Below the pieces are notes generated by a model. It saw only the letters and a list, made by a program, of their open reading frames with translations, searched no databases and had not been told where the DNA came from. A DNA stretch of 64,000 nucleotides from Candidatus Omnitrophota bacterium (GTDB lineage Bacteria > Omnitrophota > Gorgyraeia > B26-G9), in NCBI GenBank assembly GCA_043826565.1, contig JBDRPX010000015.1, positions 3,317 to 67,316 of the forward strand, given 5' to 3'. Positions 2,304 to 54,808 of this stretch are shown piece after piece. Position 1 is the stretch's first letter; every line of letters begins with the position of its first letter. A program made the translations under genes and the position numbers.

Positions 2304-3266
2304 TTAATAAACAATATCTGCTTCATCAAAAACTGTTTCTGATAATTCAACCTGAATGGTTTTCGCGGTTTTTTGATTTACAGATAATAATGTTTTACGC
2401 GGAAATTCGACAGAAATACTTTCAATATTTTGACCGCCCAGTATTTTTATGGCCATTTGCGCTGCCTGCCGGCCGATATCATTATAATCACTTTCTAGAG
2501 CAAACAATGCCCCCCCTTTTACATACGCCGAAGAAAACGCCATAAACGGACATTTATTTCTTAGAGTTGCCAGTAAAATTTTTTGGGTTGTATTTGGATT
2601 AAATATTAATGGGTCAACCCCTCCCCACAAACACTCACTTTCTTTTAACACCATCTCCAGGTTCGGCATTACTTGGGCAGAGTTATTTACCGGAACAGCC
2701 TGCAGCTCAAAACCATACTGGCCGGCCGCGGCTTGGGCCTCCTCCGCCATCAATGTTTTAACCTCAGACTGATAGAGCATACCGATTTTTTTCACTTCAG
2801 GAAGAAATTTTTTTATATATTTAAACTGCTCGGCAATCGGGATATTTAAGGCAACTCCGGTAATATTTTTATTCCTGCCCCCGGAGATGATGCCGCTTTC
2901 CTCAGGGTTTAAAACCATAAAAAAGATTATCGGGATCCCGGGAATATTTTCTTTAGCAAATACCGCTGCTTTTGTTCCTAAAGCGATTATACTATCCGGA
3001 GCGGATTTATTGATTTCCTGAAGAATTTGACCAAACTCAGCTTCCGGGATTCGACTCAAATCATACTCCCGGTAAAAAGCCGGAACATTATTATCTTTTA
3101 GCTCCTGCTTAAAGCCGCTAAGCGCCTGGTTATATTGTAAAATTACCCGCGAATTAAGAACTACGATATTTGCTTTCTCTTGAGCAACCCCTGGGGTTAA
3201 GCGCCACCCCCAAAAGAGAAAAAAAGCAAAAATTAGAAATCCAATCTTATAAAAATGTTTTTTCAT
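2304..3266 (-). CDS. periplasmic substrate-binding protein of the ABC-type uncharacterized transport family often paired with sensor kinases
   Basis: signal peptide; periplasmic-binding fold pattern (IVVLNS..IIALGTKAA..GVALNIPIAEQ); 27 bp upstream of kinase gene. Confidence 0.6.
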   Translation of the reverse strand: MKKHFYKIGFLIFAFFLFWGWRLTPGVAQEKANIVVLNSRVILQYNQALSGFKQELKDNNVPAFYREYDLSRIPEAEFGQILQEINKSAPDSIIALGTKAAVFAKENIPGIPIIFFMVLNPEESGIISGGRNKNITGVALNIPIAEQFKYIKKFLPEVKKIGMLYQSEVKTLMAEEAQAAAGQYGFELQAVPVNNSAQVMPNLEMVLKESECLWGGVDPLIFNPNTTQKILLATLRNKCPFMAFSSAYVKGGALFALESDYNDIGRQAAQMAIKILGGQNIESISVEFPRKTLLSVNQKTAKTIQVELSETVFDEADIVY

Positions 3267-3540
3267 ATGACAAGACTTTATTAAATTGTTTAAGTTGGAA
3301 TTAAAAAAAATCCCGAATCACTGTTCAAAAAATGAACATTTCCCCGGGCTTAAGCATTGATCAATTGTTTTTCTCTTTCAGAAATAATACTTTGCATATT
3401 AGTACCCTTCATTAGAGGTCAAACAATATAATTTGGCGTTAAAATACCTCAAAACACAAGCAGAAACACATATATTGTTGTATTCTATATTATATTATGC
3501 TATTGTTTGATGTCAACGTTTTTCTTTAATACACATCTAA

Positions 3541-3574
3541 TAAAAAAGGCGGTCAAGCTGAAAGCTTGACCGCC
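3541..3574 (-). terminator. intrinsic terminator downstream of response regulator gene
   Basis: GGCGGTCAAGCT-GAAA-AGCTTGACCGCC hairpin preceded by A-run on plus strand (T-run in minus sense). Confidence 0.5.
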
Positions 3575-3590
3575 TTAACTGCTTTAGCTA

Positions 3591-4202
3591 TCACTCAGAA
3601 TCACCTTCTCCAAAACTAGGTCTTTTAGAAGGAGCATTATTAAACGCATCAGAAATTATTGTCTTCATTTCATATAAGTCGAACGGTTTAGCCAAAGAAG
3701 TATACGCGCCCATTTTCGCCGCCTCCAGATTCGTCTGCAATGTGCGATGAGCGCTTAGCATTATTACAGCAATATTGATATCTATTTCCTTAATTCTTTT
3801 TAATGTTTCTATCCCATCGATTCCCGGCATGCGGATATCCAGCAAAACCAGATCAGGCCGGTCTTTGCGCACAATTTCCAAAGCTTCGGTTCCATTGGAA
3901 GCCTTAAGCACTCGATATTCCTTTAATACTCTTTCAAAATAATCCTGAATTGTTTGGTCATCATCAACAATCAGGACAGTCTTAGCCCCTTTTGCATTGC
4001 TAACCGTATTAAACTGTTCAAGCTCCGGCTTTTCTTTAAATTGGCTCATCAGCCAAGCATCGATTAAGTCTTTGCGGAAACGCCATTCACTAGCAACTTT
4101 AAACGCGGGGATTTTCCCCTGCCTGGCCAGTTTATAAATAGTCATCTTATTCATTTGAAGATATTCTGCCACTTGAGCTATGTCCAGCAAATTTTCCGCC
4201 AT
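3591..4202 (-). CDS. response regulator with N-terminal excisionase/MerR-type HTH (HTH_17) and C-terminal receiver domain
   Basis: N-terminus IAQVAEYLQMNKMTIYKLARQGKIPAFKV matches excisionase-family HTH; the C-terminal half (LIVDDD..LLDIRMPGIDG..) is a CheY-like receiver. Confidence 0.8.
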   Translation of the reverse strand: MAENLLDIAQVAEYLQMNKMTIYKLARQGKIPAFKVASEWRFRKDLIDAWLMSQFKEKPELEQFNTVSNAKGAKTVLIVDDDQTIQDYFERVLKEYRVLKASNGTEALEIVRKDRPDLVLLDIRMPGIDGIETLKRIKEIDINIAVIMLSAHRTLQTNLEAAKMGAYTSLAKPFDLYEMKTIISDAFNNAPSKRPSFGEGDSE

Positions 4203-4505
4203 TTTACATCTCCTATTTTTTAACTGATATACCTTTCGCTCACTATTATATAATATCCTATAATATTATAATTTAATTTACACAAAAATTTCGTTTTTGT
4301 CAAGCACTTTATCTTGAACATGGCAGGATTTTAAACTGCCCTATTTTTTAGCAGAATTTTTGATTCTTTCTTGTTTTTCCTGAACTTGAAAGAACCTGAT
4401 TACTGTGATTAAAAACCCGATTACATCGATAACTAATTTAAAAATAATCTTTGTAATCTTTACCCTAATCTGTGTAATCAAGGGGCATTCTTAAATTCAG
4501 CTTAA

Positions 4506-6605
4506 TTAAGAATGGCCCGAATTTTTTCTTTTTTCTTCTACAATTGTTTCCGATATCGCAAACGGGACTTCTACATATTTTTCAAAATGCATGGAATATG
4601 TAGCACGTCCACTACTTAAAGAACGAATATCGCTGGCATAACCAAACATTTCCGATAGCGGCGCTTCCGCGGCGACAATCTGCTGTTTTCCTTTAATTTC
4701 CATACCCAGAACTTTTCCTCTGCGCCGGCAAACATCACCGACAATATCACCCACAGATTCCTCCGGGGTAGTTATTTCCAAAGACATATGGGGCTCCAGC
4801 AAAATCGGAGCGCCTTTCAGAAATGCCCGCTTAAAACATTCCGCTCCGGCAACCTTGAAAGCCATTTCCGAAGAATCAACTTCATGATAAGAACCATCCA
4901 CCAGGTCAACCCGGACATCAACAACCGGATACCCAGCATAGATTCCTTTTTTCATAACACTGATTATTCCCTTTTCTATCGCTGGAATATATTCGCGGGG
5001 GATAGATCCTCCGGTAATCTTATTATTAAATTCAAATCCATGGCCCGGCTCAGTAGGGTATATCTCAATTTTAACATGCGCGTATTGCCCCTTACCCCCG
5101 GTTTGCTTAACATGCTTATGGTTTTCCATGGCATTTTTAACAATAGTTTCCTTGTAAGCAACTTTTGGCTGACCGACAACAGCATCAACCTTAAACTCAT
5201 GTTTTAATCTGTCTATAATAATTTCCAGATGAAGCTCTCCCATTCCGGAAAGAATAGTTTCTTCTGTTTCCTGGTCTGTTGATATTGTAAACGTCGGGTC
5301 TTCTTCGGCAAGCCTGACCAGCCCCCTGCCAAGCCTTTCCTGATCCTGACGGCTTTGCGGATTAATACTCATGGACATTACCGGTGCCGGAAATTCTATG
5401 GCCTCCAAAATAACCTGCTTATCCGGATCGCACAAAGTATCTCCGGTAACCGTACGGTCTAATCCCACAACCGCGGCAATCTCTCCGGCATAAATAGCTT
5501 CAATGATCTCTCTTTGATTAGCATGCATCTGTAGAATTCTGCCCACACGCTCTTTTTTTCCTTTAGTCGAATTATACACATAGGAACCGGCTTTTAATTC
5601 TCCGGAGTAAACCCGCACATACACCAATTTACCCATATGCGGGTCAGCCTGTACTTTAAAAGCAAGTGCGGCAAAAGGCTCACTATCCTCCGGCTTGCGG
5701 GTAATCTTTTTTTCCGCATCATCAGGGTCTTTCCCTTCAATCGCCCCGATATCACTTGGTGATGGCAAATAATTAATGACCGCATCCAATAATTTCTGTA
5801 CTCCTTTGTTTTTAAATGCTGCCCCGCAAAGCACCGGAACAATCTTATTAGCAATCGTTCCAATACGAATTGCCTTTATTAACTCTTCTTTAGTAATTGA
5901 TTTTTCATCCTCAAGATATTTTTCCATGATAGAGTCATCTAATTCTGCTGCCTTCTCGATCATGATATGATAATATTCCTGGGCTATTTTTTTATATTCT
6001 TCCGGGATTTCTTCCTCATGAAAATTTTTCCCGAAAGAATCATCATCATAAATATACGCTTTCATTTCTATCAGATCAACAATTCCCCGAAAATTGTCTT
6101 CAGCCCCGATAGGAATCTGTAACGGAATTACATTCGCTTCCAGATTATGCTCTATTTCTTTTATAACTTCAAAAAAATCCGCGCCTATTCTATCCATCTT
6201 ATTAATAAAAGCCAGTTTCGGAACTTCATATTTATTAGACTGACGCCATACTGTCTCTGACTGCGGCTCCACACCCCCCACCGCGCAAAAAACCGCGATT
6301 GCTCCGTCTAAAATACGCAAACTGCGCTCAACCTCTACCGTAAAATCAACGTGTCCGGGAGTATCAATAATATTGATTCTAGTATCTTTCCAAAAACAGG
6401 TTGTTGCCGCAGAAGTGATTGTAATTCCTCTCTCCTGCTCCTGCTTCATCCAGTCCATCTGCGCTTTTCCGTCATGAACCTCGCCGATTTTATGCGAACG
6501 CCCGGTGTAAAACAGAATACGCTCGGTAACTGTAGTTTTTCCGGCATCAATATGCGCCATAATCCCAATGTTTCTTACTTTACTTAATTCGATTGTACGT
6601 GCCAT
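4506..6605 (-). CDS. fusA: translation elongation factor G (stand-alone copy, outside an rpsL-rpsG-fusA-tuf operon)
   Basis: G1-G4 motifs [21 protein letters not shown]; full five-domain length of 699 aa. Confidence 0.9.
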
Positions 6606-24226: not shown

Positions 24227-24300
24227 TTATTGCTTTTTTCTAAACCAGCACACCCCAAATATTCCGCTTAAGAAAAGTAATATTGTGGGTAGATAAAATA
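24227..24300 (-). pseudogene. duplicated fragment of PEP-CTERM C-terminal coding segment
   Basis: about 35 bp cccaaatattccgcttaagaaaagtaatattgt nearly identical to the 3' end of the HAF gene; encodes ...LPTILLFLSGIFG in a 63-aa ORF. Confidence 0.4.
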
Positions 24301-24350
24301 AAATGGCGGATCCGCCTTGAGGCGAGATCTCGCCAAATTTTCCAAAAATT
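24301..24350. repeat. GC-rich palindromic module immediately 3' of tRNA-Ser(CGA)
   Basis: contains palindromes GGCGGATCCGCC and GGCGAGATCTCGCC; same palindromes recur at 21462, 33421 and 47196. Confidence 0.55.
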
Positions 24351-24440
24351 TGGCGGAGAGTGAAGGATTCGAACCTTCGGTCCGGTTGCCCGGACAACGG
24401 TTTTCGAGACCGCCACATTAAACCGCTCTGCCAACTCTCC
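24351..24440 (-). tRNA. tRNA-Ser (anticodon CGA), long variable arm
   Basis: minus-sense GGAGAGT..anticodon loop CTCGAAA..variable arm..T-arm GAAGGTTCGAATCCTTC..ACTCTCC-G-CCA. Confidence 0.85.
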
Positions 24441-24539
24441 GCGAATAATCGTAGATTATGAGCGGATATCGAACTCTGTTTTATAGAGTGAGATATCTTT
24501 TTATTCTAATCTTAAAATTTGTCAGCTAAATCTAGCTTT

Positions 24540-24743
24540 TTATCTCGCCGATCTATAATTACCACATTTTTCCTTATGTATAAGCTTTAGCGGTTTTCTG
24601 TATCTTGTGTAACGACACTTAGTTGTCGTATTATGCTCTTTTATTCGCTTATCAACATCTAATGCTATGCCCACATACAGACTTTTATCCCTGCACTCTG
24701 CTATATAAACAAACCATTGTTTTTGAAATACCTGCTTGTCCAT
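24540..24743 (-). CDS. small GIY-YIG nuclease-domain protein (paralog A)
   Basis: MDKQVFQKQWFVYIAECRDKSLYVGIALDVDKRIKEHN matches GIY-YIG motif; start placed at the Met aligning with paralog B. Confidence 0.75.
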   Translation of the reverse strand: MDKQVFQKQWFVYIAECRDKSLYVGIALDVDKRIKEHNTTTKCRYTRYRKPLKLIHKEKCGNYRSAR

Positions 24744-24774
24744 AATCAATGAGTTTTTGGCTCTCACCCTGCTA

Positions 24775-24900
24775 CACAGGGATTCGACCTCATTTGCATA
24801 AAACGCAAATGACCAACTCTCCGAGTTTTTACGCAGTAAAAACGAGGACTTCGAACCTGCCTTTCAGGTGAGAAGTCTTTTATCCCTCTCGCTATGCTCG
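24775..24900 (-). other. tRNA-like remnant / structured leader upstream of GIY-YIG A
   Basis: minus-sense GGAGAGTTGG (same as tRNA-Ser 5' end), 7-bp stem with 7-nt loop, GGTCGAATCC T-loop-like segment, plus hairpin GACTTCTCACCTGAAAGGCAGGTTCGAAGTC also present at 33338. Confidence 0.3.
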
Positions 24901-24991
24901 AGGTGATTTGTTTAACAGCACAAATCAGAACCCGGTTTTTCAGAGTGAGATATCTTCTCTCAGTTACTTTGGTTAAGATTCCTCGCTTCGC

Positions 24992-26161
24992 TCACTTCAT
25001 TATTGAAGAAAACAATTCATCAATTGCTTTGTAACTAATAACTTTTGTGTCGGAACGAGACTGGTTATCCTTTCCGCCATAGACTAGATAACCCGTCTTA
25101 CTTTTCGGATTAAGCTTATAATAATAATTCAGTCCCTTAAAAAAATCAGTGTTTATTGTTTTGCCTGATTTTATTTCCAGAGGAATAACTTTTGTTCCGC
25201 AATCTATTAATAAATCCACCTCATTACCGATATTATCACGAAAATAATAAATATTACTGGTATTCCCGGAATTAAAAAGAGCTTTCAAAATTTCAATAAC
25301 AATAAATGTCTCAAATAACGCGCCTTTTAACGGATGAGCGTCAATATGAGAAAGATTTTTTATGTCCAGCAAATATGCCGCAAGGCCCGGATCTGTAAAA
25401 TATAATTTTGGAGATTTAATAAGTCTCTTTCTAAAATTATTATAATGAGGTTTAAGCAGGTATACTATATAACTTGCCTCCAAAACACTCAGCCAGCTTT
25501 TCGCGGTATTATGATTTATCCCGCAATCATTAGCCAAGCCGGAAATATTAAGAATTTGGCCGGTACGTGCCGCGCATAGTTTCAAAAAAATCTCAAATTT
25601 CGAAAGATCTTTTATATTAATTAATGTCCGGACATCTCTTTCTAAATAAGTACTAACGTAAAAAGATAATGCCTCGGTAGGATTAAGTTTTTTATCATGA
25701 ATCCGCGGATAAAACCCCTTATATAATATCTCATTCACGGGAACAGATGTTTTTTTATATATCTCACTGTATGAAAACGGCAGTAATGTCGCCAAGGCTG
25801 TTCTACCAGCTAAAGATTGACTTATCGTGTTCATAACCTGGAAATTCTGACTGCCCGTAAGAATAAAAAGTCCCGGCTTATTTTTTTCATCTACAATTGT
25901 TTGAATATAAGAAGTTAAGTCCGGAACTCTTTGAATCTCATCAATTATCGCGCCCTTTTTGAAGCAGTCATGTAAAAATCCTTTGGGATCATTCCGCGCA
26001 TAATTACGCGTGTCGATATCCTCCAAAGAAAAGTACTGCAGTTTAGGAAATAACATTCTGCATAAAGTAGTTTTTCCGGACTGGCGAGGACCGGTAATCG
26101 TGACTACCGGATAATGTTTAAAATACGATAAGATTTTGGTCGCGATATTTCTTTCTATCAT
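24992..26161 (-). CDS. AAA-family ATPase with DUF4143-type C-terminal domain
   Basis: Walker A GPRQSGKTT; typical length and architecture. Confidence 0.8.
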   Translation of the reverse strand: MIERNIATKILSYFKHYPVVTITGPRQSGKTTLCRMLFPKLQYFSLEDIDTRNYARNDPKGFLHDCFKKGAIIDEIQRVPDLTSYIQTIVDEKNKPGLFILTGSQNFQVMNTISQSLAGRTALATLLPFSYSEIYKKTSVPVNEILYKGFYPRIHDKKLNPTEALSFYVSTYLERDVRTLINIKDLSKFEIFLKLCAARTGQILNISGLANDCGINHNTAKSWLSVLEASYIVYLLKPHYNNFRKRLIKSPKLYFTDPGLAAYLLDIKNLSHIDAHPLKGALFETFIVIEILKALFNSGNTSNIYYFRDNIGNEVDLLIDCGTKVIPLEIKSGKTINTDFFKGLNYYYKLNPKSKTGYLVYGGKDNQSRSDTKVISYKAIDELFSSIMK

Positions 26162-32703: not shown

Positions 32704-32958
32704 AAATTACCCCCAAGTAGAAACATAATATTCTCTCCTTTTATATCAGAAATTCACTAAAAAAGCAACCCTTAAAGACCTCCGCCGCATCGCCCGCCCC
32801 TTGCTTTTCCAAAAAATTTATGCTATCTTATGCACGTACCGTTAGTTTTGATCGTATGATCTTTTGCGGAAAAATACCTGGGCGGTGATCTGAGCGTAAG
32901 CGAAGATCATCTCGAACAGAGTGAGAGATCTTCAAAAAGCCTACAGGATAAGAATATC

Positions 32959-33291
32959 TTGATGAATAAAGATATATTTGTAAAACCTTGGTTTTTATAT
33001 ATCGCAAAATGTCGAGATGGGACACTTTATGTTGGTGTTGCGCAAGATGTATATAAAAGAATAAAGGAACATAATACAACCAATCGATGTAGATATACGC
33101 GGTTCCGCAAGCCACTAATATTGATATATAAGGAAAAATCTGATAATTATAGCTTAGTGCGAAAAAGAGAATCAGAAGTAAAGAAATTTAGTCGGAAGAA
33201 AAAGCTAGCGCTAATAGAACAAAGAATCTCAGAGAAGCTATCTCACCCCAAAGAACGGGGTTCGATATCCGCTGATCGAAGCAAAAGTTGA
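32959..33291 (+). CDS. small GIY-YIG nuclease-domain protein (paralog B) with basic C-terminal tail
   Basis: MNKDIFVKPWFLYIAKCRDGTLYVGVAQDVYKRIKEHN..; flanked by about 31-bp imperfect direct repeats. Confidence 0.75.
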   Translation: MMNKDIFVKPWFLYIAKCRDGTLYVGVAQDVYKRIKEHNTTNRCRYTRFRKPLILIYKEKSDNYSLVRKRESEVKKFSRKKKLALIEQRISEKLSHPKERGSISADRSKS

Positions 33292-33392
33292 GATCATCTC
33301 GAGCAAACGCGAGAGATCTGATTATATTTAGACATAAGACTTCTCACCTGAAAAACAGGTTCGACGTCCGCTCAAAATTATTAGCATAATTA

Positions 33393-33418
33393 TTCGCGGA
33401 GGAATGGCTGAGCGGTTG
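33393..33418 (+). repeat. 26-bp duplicate of the 5' end of tRNA-Ser(UGA) gene (ttcgc + acceptor/D-arm)
   Basis: ttcgcggaggaatggctgagcggttg identical to 33635..33660; not followed by the rest of a tRNA. Confidence 0.6.
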
Positions 33419-33639
33419 TCCGCCGGGAGGACACAGAGAAGTTGCCTACGGCGAGATCTCGCCCGGCCTAATAAGAAAAATTTTTGATTTTGGCCGAGGC
33501 GGAAATGCGGCTGGTCTTGCGAAGCGAATGAAATGAGCGGAGTCCCGCAAGGATGCTTAAATAAGAGCACTGTCGCGGGGCAAACCGTTGTAACAACGGA
33601 ATACATAGTATACTTAAACAAAAATTTAATATTTTTCGC

Positions 33640-33727
33640 GGAGGAATGGCTGAGCGGTTGAAAGCGGCGGTCTTGAAAACCGTTGTACTGCAAGGTACCG
33701 TGGGTTCGAATCCTACTTCCTCCGCCA
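33640..33727 (+). tRNA. tRNA-Ser (anticodon UGA), long variable arm
   Basis: GGAGGAA..anticodon loop CTTGAAA..variable arm TGTACTGCAAGGTAC..T-arm GTGGGTTCGAATCCTAC..TTCCTCC-G-CCA. Confidence 0.85.
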
Positions 33728-51897: not shown

Positions 51898-53190
51898 TTA
51901 CTCCTCCTTTCTTTGGTTAGGTTCAATAAGCTCCCGCCCGTCCATATACGGCCGTAAAACTTCCGGAACAATAATCGACCCGTCTTTTTGCTGATAGGTT
52001 TCCATTATCGCGATCACTGTTCTGGCCAAGGCAACACCGGAACCATTTAAAGTGTGCACAAAATTTGTTTTTCCGGTTGCGGAATCTTTATATTTAATAT
52101 TTGCCCGGCGCGCCTGAAAATCTTCAAAATTACTACAGCTGGAAACTTCCAGCCATTTCCCTACCCCCGGAGCCCACGCTTCGATATCATAACACTTAGC
52201 TGCCGCAAAGCTGATATCACCGGTTGATAAACACAGTACCCGATAAGGAAGTTTTAAAAGCTGAAGCACAGTTTCCGCGTTAGTTAATAAGGTTTCCAGC
52301 TCATTGTATGAATCCTGCGGTTTGACAAATTTAACCATTTCCACCTTATCAAACTGATGAACTCTCATCAAACCGCGGGTATCTTTACCATAAGACCCTG
52401 CTTCCCTTCTAAAGCAAGGGGTATAGGCGGTGTAATATATCGGGAGCTCCCCATCATTCAATACTTCATCTCTATGTATATTAGTTACAGGCACTTCTGC
52501 TGTTGGAATCAAAAATAAATCATCTTCACAGGCCCGATACATATCTTCTTCAAGCTTCGGAAGTTGTCCAGTCCCAGTCATGCTCGCCCTATTCACCAAA
52601 AGTGGAGGGGAAATCTCAGTATACCCGTGCTTTTGTGTGTGCAATCCCAACATAAAATTAATTAAAGCTCTTTCCATTCTGGCCCCAACACCTTTAAAAA
52701 GCACAAAATTTGACCCTGTCAACTTGGCTGCTCTGGCAAAATCTATAATATCAAGGTGTTCTGATAGAGCAATATGATCTTTTGGCGTAAAATCAAAAGA
52801 ACAGATTTCTCCCCATTTTTTAATTTCAATGTTTGCGGCGGCATCTTTTCCTATTGGTACTGATTTATGGGGTATATTTGGGACATTGATTACTATATCA
52901 GAAACTTTTTGGTTAACATCACCCACTTTTGCATCAAATTCCTTGATTTTTTGGGACAACTCCTTTAGTGTGGTTCTTTTTTCCGAAACATCTTCTTTTT
53001 TGGCTATTAGCTTAGCCATTTCATCAGAAGCCAGGTTTCTTTGACGTTTTAATTCCTCTACCTCGGTTAGTAGTTCTCTTTTTTGCTTATCCAGCGCCAG
53101 TAATTCATCAATACTAATACGCATATTGCGATTTCCTATCGCCGCTTTTACAATCTCTGGATTTTCTCTAATAAATTTTAGGTCTAACAT
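51898..53190 (-). CDS. serS: seryl-tRNA synthetase
   Basis: N-terminal coiled-coil arm, class II motifs; MLDLKFIRENPE.. typical SerRS start. Confidence 0.9.
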   Translation of the reverse strand: MLDLKFIRENPEIVKAAIGNRNMRISIDELLALDKQKRELLTEVEELKRQRNLASDEMAKLIAKKEDVSEKRTTLKELSQKIKEFDAKVGDVNQKVSDIVINVPNIPHKSVPIGKDAAANIEIKKWGEICSFDFTPKDHIALSEHLDIIDFARAAKLTGSNFVLFKGVGARMERALINFMLGLHTQKHGYTEISPPLLVNRASMTGTGQLPKLEEDMYRACEDDLFLIPTAEVPVTNIHRDEVLNDGELPIYYTAYTPCFRREAGSYGKDTRGLMRVHQFDKVEMVKFVKPQDSYNELETLLTNAETVLQLLKLPYRVLCLSTGDISFAAAKCYDIEAWAPGVGKWLEVSSCSNFEDFQARRANIKYKDSATGKTNFVHTLNGSGVALARTVIAIMETYQQKDGSIIVPEVLRPYMDGRELIEPNQRKEE

Positions 53191-53359
53191 AGAATCAGCT
53201 CCTTAATTTGCCTTGGCAAATTAACCTCGAACATATTTTAGTGAGAGGTCTCTACATTTTTATTCTTACATTTGAAAATAACATAGCCTACTAAAAAACT
53301 CAAGCAAAAACACTATTTCTTTTTTTTGTTTTAACCTGTCACTTGCGACCTGAAACCAG

Positions 53360-54808
53360 TTACCCCTTAATTACTCCCAACGGTCGCATCCGGCACACTT
53401 TTTTGGAAATTCCCGCACCGTGAACAACCTCAACCACATCATTGACATTCTTGTATGCGTCCGGAGCTTCCTCGGCGATGGTATCTCTGCCCTTGGCGCG
53501 GATAATAATACCTTTTTGTTTTAAATCGTGAATGATCTTATGTCTATCCAGAGTACGAATAGCTTCTGATCGTGATTTTAATCTTCCTGCTCCATGGCAG
53601 GTACTGCCAAAAGTTTCCTCCATAGCGTTTTGTGTTCCCACAAGCAGATAAGAATGTGTGCCCATATCACCGGGAATAATTACCGGCTGGCCGATTTTCT
53701 TATATCTATCCGGCAGATCCGGATGTCCCGGACCAAAAGCCCGGGTCGCGCCTTTTCGATGAACACAAAGTTTTTTTTCTTTACCCTCAATAATATGTTT
53801 TTCTATTTTAGCCATATTATGGGAAACATCATAGATTAAATTCATTCCCAGTTTTTCCCAGCTTTGATTAAATACTTTTTCAAAAACATCCCGAGTATAC
53901 TGCATAAGCACCTGGCGATTCGCCCAGGCATAGTTGGCCGCGCAATTCATGGCTGATAAGTATCTTTCCCCCTCTTTTGACTCTACGGGAGCACAAGCCA
54001 ATTGTTTGTCCGGAACATTAATTTCATATTTTCGTAAACAATTCAACATTGTTTTAATGTAATCCGTGCATACCTGGTGACCAAACCCCCGCGATCCGGT
54101 ATGGATCATTACCGTTATCTGCCCTTTTTCCAGATTAAGCTCACGGGCAATATCTTCATCAAATATCGTGTCTATTACCTGCACTTCCAGAAAATGGTTA
54201 CCGGAGCCCAGGGTTCCGGATTGAGGCTTTCCTCTCTCATAAGCGCGCTCGGATACTGCCTCAGGATCAGTAAAATCCATTTTTCCGCCCTCTTCCGTAC
54301 ATTCGAGGTCGGATTTTATGCCAAATCCTTTAGCAACTGCCCACGCCGCCCCCTCAGTAAGCACTTTTACAGCCTCCGCTCCTTTAAGCTTTATCTGTCC
54401 AGTTGAGCCAACTCCTGAGGGAACAACATGATAGAGCTTATTTACCAGGTCTTCCAGGCTGCCACTCATCTCATCATAAAAAAGCCTGGTTTTCATTAAT
54501 CTCACTCCACAATTAATATCAAACCCAACGCCGCCAGGGCTAATTACTCCATTTTTCTCTATATTAGTCGCCACTACTCCACCGATAGGAAAACCATAAC
54601 CCCAGTGTATATCCGGCATAGCTAGGGCGTATTTTTCAATCCCCGGCAAAAAAGTTGTATTCGCCACCTGTTCTATGGCCTTGTCTTTTAATAAACTCGG
54701 AAGTAATTTTTCGCTGGTATAGATAACACCATCTACAAGCATGCCTGGTTTATAACTTTTAGGGATGCGGTAGCGATATTCATCTATTTTTTCTAAAATA
54801 TTCAGCAT
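53360..54808 (-). CDS. rtcB: RNA 3'-phosphate/tRNA-splicing ligase RtcB
   Basis: 482 aa; conserved GSRGFGHQ, HNMA..HRKGATRAF, metal-binding His/Cys. Confidence 0.9.
   Translation of the reverse strand: MLNILEKIDEYRYRIPKSYKPGMLVDGVIYTSEKLLPSLLKDKAIEQVANTTFLPGIEKYALAMPDIHWGYGFPIGGVVATNIEKNGVISPGGVGFDINCGVRLMKTRLFYDEMSGSLEDLVNKLYHVVPSGVGSTGQIKLKGAEAVKVLTEGAAWAVAKGFGIKSDLECTEEGGKMDFTDPEAVSERAYERGKPQSGTLGSGNHFLEVQVIDTIFDEDIARELNLEKGQITVMIHTGSRGFGHQVCTDYIKTMLNCLRKYEINVPDKQLACAPVESKEGERYLSAMNCAANYAWANRQVLMQYTRDVFEKVFNQSWEKLGMNLIYDVSHNMAKIEKHIIEGKEKKLCVHRKGATRAFGPGHPDLPDRYKKIGQPVIIPGDMGTHSYLLVGTQNAMEETFGSTCHGAGRLKSRSEAIRTLDRHKIIHDLKQKGIIIRAKGRDTIAEEAPDAYKNVNDVVEVVHGAGISKKVCRMRPLGVIKG

Follow-up and report, generated by a model that had tools for sequence, protein, structure and literature searches.

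T4 SegB, a GIY-YIG homing endonuclease encoded in a tRNA cluster, recognises a tRNA T-loop motif, has a recognition site of 27 bp, and spreads together with flanking tRNA DNA (PMC2330249). Here we describe two modules, A and B, in a 64,000-nt stretch of a contig from a Candidatus Omnitrophota bacterium (the 64 kb analysed as a whole, hereafter the window), in each of which a small GIY-YIG open reading frame (ORF) of the UPF0213 family lies upstream of a tRNA-Ser gene. Our sequence comparisons make it fairly probable that a selfish cassette of 370-480 bp colonises the tRNA-Ser genes of Candidatus Omnitrophota, with module A as an old copy, now inactivated, and module B as a copy with an intact ORF, and that movement of this cassette would be initiated by its nuclease. 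No published description of a UPF0213/tRNA cassette was found in the literature searched. The cassette may be filed as a variant of the free-standing homing-endonuclease cassettes, and the chance that it represents a new nuclease-only, tRNA-targeting class is substantial.

Like SegB, the cassette has a GIY-YIG nuclease gene lodged among or beside tRNA genes, and the 3' half of its principal hairpin, H (GGGGTTCGAnnTCC), resembles the tRNA T-loop motif of SegB. SegB, however, is a longer, multi-domain protein with an extended site, whereas the cassette protein is a bare catalytic domain of about 88 amino acids (aa); the T-even Seg genes are phage-borne, whereas the cassette is found in bacterial chromosomes; and the Seg genes lack hairpin inverted-repeat ends, an 18-20-bp flanking duplication, and ORF-less derivatives, all three of which the cassette has. 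With insertion sequences (IS) and miniature inverted-repeat transposable elements (MITEs) it shares inverted-repeat ends, a target duplication, a single small ORF, ORF-less miniatures, and site preference. Unlike IS elements, it has no DDE, HUH, serine, or tyrosine transposase, its duplication is long (18-20 bp) and always of the same part of one gene family, and its copies are confined to tRNA-Ser genes. Integrase-mediated islands duplicate the 3' end of a tRNA gene and need an integrase; both they and the cassette spare the interrupted gene by duplicating its end, but in the cassette this is the 5' end and there is no recombinase. A mobile GIY-YIG ORF that carries a replacement gene end was reportedly described in the mitochondrial atp6 gene of the fungus Allomyces by Paquin et al. 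in 1994, and such fungal mitochondrial ORFs resemble the cassette in that insertion into an essential gene is made harmless through a duplicated or replaced end. Finally, RAYTs are relatives of the HUH Y1 transposases, and REPINs number tens to hundreds of dispersed copies (PMC3337134). The REP/REPIN-RAYT systems and the cassette alike combine a nuclease-type gene flanked by inverted hairpin repeats with ORF-less doublets and hairpins of conserved base and variable top, but the cassette enzyme is of the GIY-YIG type, there is no HUH protein, and within the 64 kb the hairpins are confined to the cassettes and one serS site.

Stand-alone UPF0213/YhbQ/YazA proteins of solved structure (1ZG2, 1YWL) belong to the same family as the cassette protein by profile and by fold. 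The UPF0213/YhbQ family is very large and has, to our knowledge, no assigned function, and no description of its function or mobility was found in the literature searched. Its members yhbQ of Escherichia coli and yazA of Bacillus subtilis we take to be single-copy genes that do not lie beside tRNAs. The module B protein has 57 homologues, typically of 85-90 aa and mostly from Omnitrophota, with relatives spanning 79-150 aa, and it keeps the invariant or near-invariant residues Y14, Y24, G26, R34, H38, N39, R70, and E71. Searched against PDB, the family profile retrieved the UPF0213 structures 1ZG2 (E 3.4e-18) and 1YWL (E 3.2e-16), and an AlphaFold2 model of the module B protein (predicted local distance difference test score 89) had these two structures as its best fold matches, followed by Slx1. 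Slx1 cleaves branched DNA in a structure-specific manner, which would fit recognition of hairpins or cruciforms. Profile and modelled fold agree in placing the module B protein in the GIY-YIG superfamily as a member of the UPF0213 (UPF0213/YhbQ) subfamily; TIGR01453 matched with 18.8 bits, below its cutoff of 56 bits. No second Pfam domain beyond PF01541 and no DNA-binding domain joined to the nuclease was found in the relatives. The GIY-YIG gene is the sole ORF of the cassette, which contains no transposase or recombinase of the DDE, HUH, serine, or tyrosine type.

In related Omnitrophota loci (loci outside the window are numbered with the prefix L), the unit has a common order: positions 1 to 18/20 of tRNA-Ser, two hairpins termed LH and H', the UPF0213 ORF of about 88 aa, two further hairpins termed H and hp, and an intact tRNA-Ser gene. 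A tRNA-Ser gene on the same strand was found 23-156 nt downstream of the ORF in 17 of about 20 close genome relatives and in 11 of 13 close metagenome relatives, which bears out the pairing noticed when the window was first read from its letters alone (the sequence-only reading). Cassette-bearing genes carried all four anticodons surveyed (GCT, TGA, GGA, and CGA). The spacer between ORF and tRNA always consisted of H followed by a small A/T-rich hp that abuts tRNA position +1. At the left end, tRNA-Ser is copied from position 1 up to the D-loop GG at position 18-20, and then come, in conserved order, LH, of the form (A/T)CATTTTCGC..GCGAAAATG(T/A), and H', of the form TCTCGAAC..GTGAGAGATC; a strict pattern for this junction, namely tRNA 1-18/20, an (A/T)CATTTT.. 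hairpin, and a TCTCGAA..GTGAGAGATC hairpin, matched 13 of 30 loci. In 9 of 10 loci the flanking fragment agreed with the cognate tRNA 5' end at 100% identity, with six different sequences involved, and in L001 the duplication begins precisely at tRNA +1. L094 has a non-cognate fragment (15/18 identical). The insert between the tRNA copies measures 372-476 bp.

The cassette site therefore lies after position 18-20, at the D-loop GG, with an intact tRNA downstream and a dead 5' fragment upstream, and the duplication of the gene's first 18-20 nt is best read as what keeps the downstream tRNA intact. When the left end was compared with the reverse complement of the right end, scores of 21-41 were obtained against shuffle means of 14-16 (standard deviation about 3) in 10 of 11 loci; the ends are imperfect, and the score was clearly above the shuffle range in about 8 of the 11. 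tRNA-Ser genes with a cassette and others without one were seen both inside single genomes and between genomes, and all seven tRNA-Ser genes without an adjacent ORF also lacked H, hp, LH, and H'. The proposal of the sequence-only reading that a mobile, homing-endonuclease-like cassette accompanies or targets tRNA-Ser loci is thus backed by a common D-loop junction, a cognate duplication, empty genes without the elements, copy-number polymorphism, and decayed or ORF-less copies.

The polymorphism itself can be read in another way. L081 and L082, which come from different samples, encode an identical protein and have the same flanking genes, and they contain one and two perfect 418-bp tandem units, respectively; L095 has tandem 432-bp units. 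The tandem units of L082 and L095 are as expected from unequal crossing-over between direct repeats of about 90 nt, and they suit an explanation without any mobility encoded by the element, in which gene conversion and unequal crossing-over spread an ordinary small gene that uses tRNA promoters among the tRNA-Ser paralogues; the hairpins would then act in termination or processing, and recombination would have left the 18-nt duplication as a scar. Mosaic copies (in L014 H differs and hp is identical, in L006 H is identical and hp differs) and the non-cognate fragment of L094 point the same way. Recombination of this kind does not predict a constant junction after the D-loop GG in four anticodon families with a start at +1, or inverted-repeat ends, or the homologous left-end hairpins that, in other phyla, adjoin unrelated tRNAs at their 3' ends, and we regard it as quite improbable as the whole explanation.

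H, the hairpin at the right end of the cassette, has on the coding strand the consensus AAGAnnTC - TC - R[variable stem-loop]Y - TC - GAnnTCC, that is, a conserved base, mismatches, and a top that is free to vary or covary. H' is H in the inverse orientation, and its internal loop, read on that strand, forms a tandem G.A/A.G mismatch; LH and hp of the window modules are also hairpins of the GA/TC type. The pattern TCTCACN{8,20}GTTCGA occurs five times in the window, four of them at the two modules, where 0.03 occurrences are expected, which excludes chance. In 20 copies of H, taken from the window and from related genomes, pairing extended to 92.6% of cells and 11 of 14 pairs had changed on both sides, whereas slid controls gave 19-45%. 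A covariance model built from these copies (CM R1) located four strong H copies in the 64 kb, only at the two modules, all of which fold as predicted, and it found new H copies in independent metagenome loci with 94.2% of cells paired and 10 of 13 pairs covarying; across both sets of copies the slid controls were 19-54% paired. No match for H was found among the 4227 covariance models of Rfam, where tRNA and chance matches were the only ones, permissive E-values included. G.U pairs make up about 1-2% of cells and H is used in both orientations, which favours a role at the DNA level or one that is symmetric between strands.

Within the window, whose only two tRNA genes according to ARAGORN and Rfam are tRNA-Ser(CGA) and tRNA-Ser(UGA), all features of module A lie on the minus strand:

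24351-24440, minus strand: tRNA-Ser(CGA), intact, the occupied target gene of module A (ARAGORN; Rfam RF00005, 56.1 bits).
24438-24466, minus strand: hp_A3, a small A/T-rich hairpin with TC/TC mismatches, outer hairpin of the cassette right end (GA/TC-hairpin scan).
24465-24497, minus strand: H_A3, compound hairpin GATATC-TC-ACTCT(loop)AGAGT-TC-GATATC, inner hairpin of the right end (CM R1 50.3 bits, E 1.6e-9; fold -10.3 kcal/mol, z -4.7; covariation).
24540-24743 (from ATG) or 24540-24767 (from GTG), minus strand: GIY-YIG (UPF0213) ORF, 67 aa from the ATG, predicted pseudogene (Pfam PF01541, E 7.7e-12, profile positions 1-61 of 78).
24759-24789, minus strand: H'_A, a degenerate hairpin in inverse orientation (GA strand) upstream of the ORF (fold; positional homology with relatives).
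24790-24812, minus strand: LH_A, hairpin TCATTTGCG..GCAAATGA, first element of the cassette left end (fold with a 10-bp stem; homology).
24813-24822, minus strand: displaced copy of tRNA-Ser positions 1-10, GGAGAGTTGG (identical to the tRNA 5' end).
24825-24877, minus strand: H_A2 (24847-24877) and hp_A2 (24825-24843), right end of an older ORF-less unit (CM R1 44.7 bits, E 3.3e-8; fold z -3.35).
24882-24927, minus strand: LH-like hairpin GATTTGT..ACAAATC (24905-24927) and H'-type GA hairpin (24882-24907), left end of the ORF-less, MITE-like unit (GA-hairpin scan match at 24885-24903; sequence reading).
24928-24956, minus strand: H_A1, a decayed H with an unpaired 3' half (29-nt repeat, 86% identical to 24471-24499; no CM R1 match at E<=10).

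The ORF lies on the strand of tRNA-Ser(CGA), 99 nt upstream of the tRNA gene, and the 3' arm of hp_A3 overlaps the first 3 nt of that gene, a placement with equivalents in 33 related right ends. Alignment with the DNA of module B and with 19 relatives revealed a nonsense codon in place of the Lys of relatives, a deletion of 12 nt, and one more stop; the near-invariant R-E..KKFSRKKKLAL tail with the catalytic Glu is gone, R70 and E71 being missing. The module A ORF is accordingly classed, from these alignments, as a pseudogene cut off ahead of the segment with the catalytic Glu. H'_A has positional counterparts TCTCGAAC..GTGAGAGATC in L001, L003, L008, L012, L081, and L092-L099, and a homologue of LH_A, ACATTTTCGC..GCGAAAATGT, stands at the equivalent junction in 13 loci. 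The 10 nt at 24813-24822 are most simply what remains of an 18-nt flanking duplication, which 10 related loci retain at its full length of 18-20 nt.

This anatomy redraws that of the sequence-only reading, which correctly described a GIY-YIG ORF about 100 nt upstream of tRNA-Ser(CGA) on the same strand, hairpins, repeats, and a 10-nt copy of the tRNA-Ser 5' end (GGAGAGTTGG); its stem-loop at 24790-24812 and its GACTTC..GAAGTC hairpin at 24847-24877 both fold as it stated. Its account of the repeats and of a remnant has to be replaced. The 14-mer AGAGTGAGATATCT occurs exactly twice in the 64 kb, at 24485 and 24942, and widens to a 29-nt repeat at 86% identity (24471-24499 and 24928-24956). These repeats had been taken to bracket the ORF-tRNA pair, but they bracket the ORF and the supposed remnant, the 24485 copy lying between ORF and tRNA. 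They are not simple target duplications: the repeat at 24485 coincides with the 5' half of H_A3 and the upstream one with H_A1, so that the 14-16-nt repeats are evidently the 5' halves of the compound hairpin H, and the true duplication is of tRNA positions 1-18/20. A tRNA-like remnant was not recovered either: besides the real gene, Infernal with RF00005 gave no match at E<=10 in 24250-25050, and ARAGORN gave none. The pieces described as tRNA-like are the surviving 10-nt duplication, LH, the degenerate H', within which the 'GGTCGAATCC T-loop-like' segment falls, and H_A2-hp of the older unit.

Two observations concern the surroundings. The gene adjoining module A (24992-26161, minus strand) encodes an AAA_14/DUF4143 ATPase that matches the PADLOC candidate defence family PDC-S01 (E 1e-100). 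A palindrome, GGCGAGATCTCGCC, occurs downstream of tRNA-Ser(CGA) at 24316-24335 and in the module B pseudo-tRNA at 33450-33463, and resembles a collapsed H/H' core.

Module B, the second paralogous module recognised by the sequence-only reading, occupies 32962-33727 on the plus strand, and its protein is 66% identical in amino acids to that of module A:

32866-32935, plus strand: left side, with a degenerate tRNA-Ser 5' fragment (32866-32885), the GA hairpin LH_B (32886-32909), and H'_B (32903-32935) (repeat family D1, 67% identical to the tRNA 5' region; GA scan; CM R1 minus-strand match, 13.7 bits).
32962-33291, plus strand: GIY-YIG (UPF0213) ORF, intact (Pfam E 2.1e-14, profile positions 2-76 of 78).
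33237-33400, plus strand: H_B1 (33237-33269), then an ORF-less unit of LH-like hairpin (33273-33296), H' (33296-33317), H_B2 (33338-33368), and hp_B2 (33367-33400) (CM R1 45.1 and 41.4 bits; GA scan).
33398-33605, plus strand: displaced tRNA-Ser 5' fragment (33398-33418) running into a disrupted pseudo-tRNA-Ser (repeat D1, 97%; D9/D10 fragments).
33640-33727, plus strand: tRNA-Ser(UGA), intact, the target gene of module B (ARAGORN; Rfam 60.1 bits).

The ORF runs about 22 codons past the usual stop, into H_B1, and the 21 nt of the fragment at 33398-33418 are identical to the downstream tRNA-Ser gene. As to whether the GIY-YIG ORFs are coding, which had been named as a way of refuting the sequence-only reading, module A is a truncated pseudogene and module B is intact. 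ORF-less LH-H'-H-hp units are present upstream of module A (24825-24927), at module B (33273-33400), and in L003. In a weakly resolved protein tree, the anticodon types of the associated tRNAs were intermixed.

The pseudo-tRNA-Ser of module B has insertions in the D-loop and in the anticodon loop, and an anticodon-loop insert of identical type is found in L003. Disrupted pseudo-tRNA-Ser genes lie at 33419-33605 of the window (plus strand), at about 5340-5545 of L003, and at 3270-3400 of L016; their anticodon loops share a conserved 55-60-nt insertion after CT(C/T)G (CGAAGCGAA..GAGCGGAGTCCCG..CGGGG), with a second insertion in the D-loop. These insertions may be another small insertion element that targets tRNA-Ser. 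A motif, (G)TGAGCGAAG, recurs in stem-flanked GA-type hairpins near cassettes (24975-24995, minus strand; 32886-32909, plus strand; L009 2830-2960; L098 1390-1490) and also upstream of ORFs without a canonical LH-H' end. In L002, an ORF for a 351-aa protein with a LAGLIDADG domain (PF14528; 3343-4398) lies between the cassette H hairpin and tRNA-Ser(UGA) position +1, a second homing-endonuclease family at the cassette/tRNA junction.

Several known identities were tried for the modules and rejected. There was no Intron_gpI match at E<=10 in either module, and the downstream tRNA is uninterrupted, which removes a group I intron; nor was there a T-box match in either. A phage origin was set aside, as no PHROG matched, a single viral contig matched weakly, and phage matches by tblastn were at most 46% identical and lacked the tRNA context. 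A defence origin had only a marginal PADLOC match.

We propose that the cassette nuclease cuts tRNA-Ser gene DNA and/or the hairpins and so starts movement. The observed duplication would follow from staggered breaks at -1/+1 and after position 18-20, and host repair or replication would finish the insertion. A structure-specific, Slx1-like enzyme would suit hairpins with a conserved base, tandem G.A mismatches (TC on the other strand), and a free top. The rebuilt tRNA gene would again be a target, and repeated insertion or unequal crossing-over would build arrays upstream of it, which would then decay into ORF-less hairpin units such as those around module A. Transcription that reads through from the original tRNA promoter would probably express both ORF and tRNA.

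Integration classically takes place at tRNA genes, and the cassettes could instead be attachment (att)-type scars of a larger integrative element or prophage at tRNA-Ser, with the GIY-YIG gene as cargo. Just beyond the cassette-bearing tRNA-Ser(GGA) of L081, a 650-aa large serine recombinase is encoded (3137-5089, minus strand), followed by HTH and RadC genes, and this locus is probably an integrative element that uses the same tRNA gene; a recombinase adjoining a cassette's tRNA-Ser speaks for this explanation. Yet the duplicated segment is the tRNA 5' end, the copies are only about 400 bp apart, no integrase was found in or near either window module, and viral contigs and PHROGs contain next to no members of the family. 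We consider scars of a larger element highly improbable. A classical att duplication of the tRNA 3' end was likewise looked for and rejected: it is absent in the tRNA-Ser group, and among distant relatives only L072 has a 20-nt copy of a 3' end.

The association could also be functional, a co-transcribed unit in which the UPF0213 nuclease, working on RNA or DNA, serves tRNA-Ser biology (for example precursor processing or quality control), H-hp is a leader or regulatory element of a serine regulon, and the displaced fragments are by-products of operon duplication. The strict common orientation and tight spacing, and the strong conservation of the protein with its invariant catalytic residues, would fit such a unit. 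So would the region between ORF and tRNA, where no convincing sigma-70-like promoter was found, hexamers at the right distance being absent, which makes read-through from the tRNA promoter, and with it co-transcription, likely; H-hp as a sigma-70 promoter for the tRNA was rejected, with the hexamers lacking and the hp stem extending to position -1. On the other hand, the module A ORF is dead and its tRNA intact, and ORF-less units, displaced fragments, and copy-number polymorphism are typical of selfish DNA.

A serine regulon was suggested by one further hairpin pair in the window:

53202-53255, minus strand: H-like hairpin (GAGACCTC-TC-AC..GT-TC-GAGGTT) and hp-like hairpin (AATTTGCC..GGCAAATT), directly upstream of serS (CM R1 15.5 bits, E 0.25; sequence; GA scan).

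The pair lies between a likely promoter and the ribosome-binding site of serS (51898-53190, minus strand), whose product is identical to a protein that NCBI lists for a metagenome-assembled genome of Candidatus Omnitrophota. It was absent from the RtcB-serS spacers of all six other Omnitrophota inspected, and together with the seven ORF-less tRNA-Ser genes, which have no H-hp either, this led us to reject H-hp as a native element of tRNA-Ser genes or of a serine regulon. The serS-leader pair is a lineage-specific extra copy and could be either a stray cassette end or a co-opted regulatory element. RtcB (PF01139) lies directly upstream of serS in the window (51898-54808, minus strand), an order kept in all six of the other Omnitrophota (L172-L177), and this conservation makes the RtcB-serS link independent of the GIY-YIG cassettes. 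The suggestion that nuclease and tRNA-Ser form a unit tied to RtcB and serS thus retains the one hairpin pair upstream of serS and is weakened, since the six other leaders lack the pair and the synteny does not depend on the cassette.

Beyond Omnitrophota, we surveyed 160 UPF0213 loci from many phyla. Within 350 nt of the ORFs, tRNA density was 0.79/kb as against 0.05/kb farther out (15-fold); 74 of the 160 loci have a tRNA in this range, and 81 of 82 such tRNAs are on the strand of the ORF. In distant relatives a complete tRNA lies 25-290 nt upstream of the ORF, mostly tRNA-Asn, with Gln, Glu, Ala, Met, Lys, His, Phe, Gly, and Trp also represented. That UPF0213 genes neighbour tRNAs in many phyla is again what a functional unit would lead one to expect, but the partner tRNA varies in other phyla (Asn, Gln, Glu, Ala, Met, Lys, and others), and taking both sides together we find a functional unit unlikely.

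The spacer of these distant relatives begins with a stem from the tRNA 3' end (CCATTTCGACGCG ... CGCGTCGAAATGG), followed by an S-GA-R...Y-GA-S' hairpin before the ORF. Over the 100 nt that precede the ORF, GA-mismatch hairpins reach a density of 0.375 per 100 nt, against a background of about 0.02 (about 15-fold), and they were present upstream of the ORF in 57 of the 160 loci under strict criteria; a downstream H was found in the tRNA-Ser group only. No known RNA family in Rfam matched the tRNA-ORF spacers of the distant relatives, permissive E-values included. Conserved Rfam-less spacers after a complete tRNA, found at L041, L067, L068, L072, L080, L136, L140-L156, L166, and L168, among others, have a long-range stem from the CCA end that encloses a terminator-like hairpin, and then nested CCYGAGC...GTCGARGG hairpins with tandem G.A mismatches; the GA hairpins are sometimes nested within each other (L067, L168). 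In L072, the 20-nt copy of the tRNA-Asn 3' end (GAGTCCTGCCCGGGGAGCCA) lies at 3364-3383, about 120 nt downstream of the UPF0213 ORF, and mirrors the 5' duplication at tRNA-Ser.

Several points weigh against a selfish cassette moved by its own nuclease. No filled/empty pair (one copy against none) was recovered at a single orthologous tRNA-Ser locus, and exact-protein look-ups of the window's flanking genes yielded no empty site: the one further contig is broken at the module, and no record exists of the second flanking protein. No copy here is recently active, given that copy A is dead and shares only 66% identity with copy B, and unequal crossing-over alone could yield the tandem copies. A catalytic domain of about 88 aa without a DNA-binding domain or strand-transfer chemistry cannot by itself account for site specificity or for an 18-20-bp duplication, and the regenerated tRNA gene would still contain the presumed target, an unusual outcome for a homing endonuclease. 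At some loci the inverted repeats resemble each other weakly or not at all: L003 scores below the shuffle mean, and L001, L012, and WA score within the shuffle range. Most distant relatives stand downstream of complete non-Ser tRNAs with no duplication detected, the H-hp pair that precedes serS hints at regulation in cis, and the patterns of the hairpin survey were defined post hoc, with the data already seen.

Taken across phyla, the findings allow a wider proposal, which we put forward tentatively and as open to considerable doubt: mini GIY-YIG UPF0213 nucleases with tandem-G.A hairpins might form an unrecognised, widespread class of bacterial mobile elements without transposase or recombinase. 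Such elements would target the ends of tRNA genes: in Omnitrophota they would duplicate the first 18-20 nt of tRNA-Ser, and in Nitrospirota, Desulfobacterota, the Candidate Phyla Radiation, and Planctomycetota they would attach to tRNA-Asn, Gln, Glu, and other tRNAs at the 3' end. Insertion would proceed through a structure-specific nick or cut followed by host repair. A class of this kind would give a role to the large UPF0213 family of 'unknown function'.

If the cassettes move, then at about 400 bp and with an 88-aa nuclease they would be roughly the smallest autonomous elements known. Their apparent trick is to insert inside an essential tRNA gene and have the gene rebuilt by duplication of its end. 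The H hairpin looks like a structure-specific recognition site. Moving cassettes would make the origin of specificity in a bare GIY-YIG domain testable and could offer a compact hairpin-guided or tRNA-gene-directed nuclease. For the Omnitrophota themselves, the reading, if true, would explain the pseudo-tRNA fragments and the assembly breaks at tRNA-Ser loci of their metagenome-assembled genomes.

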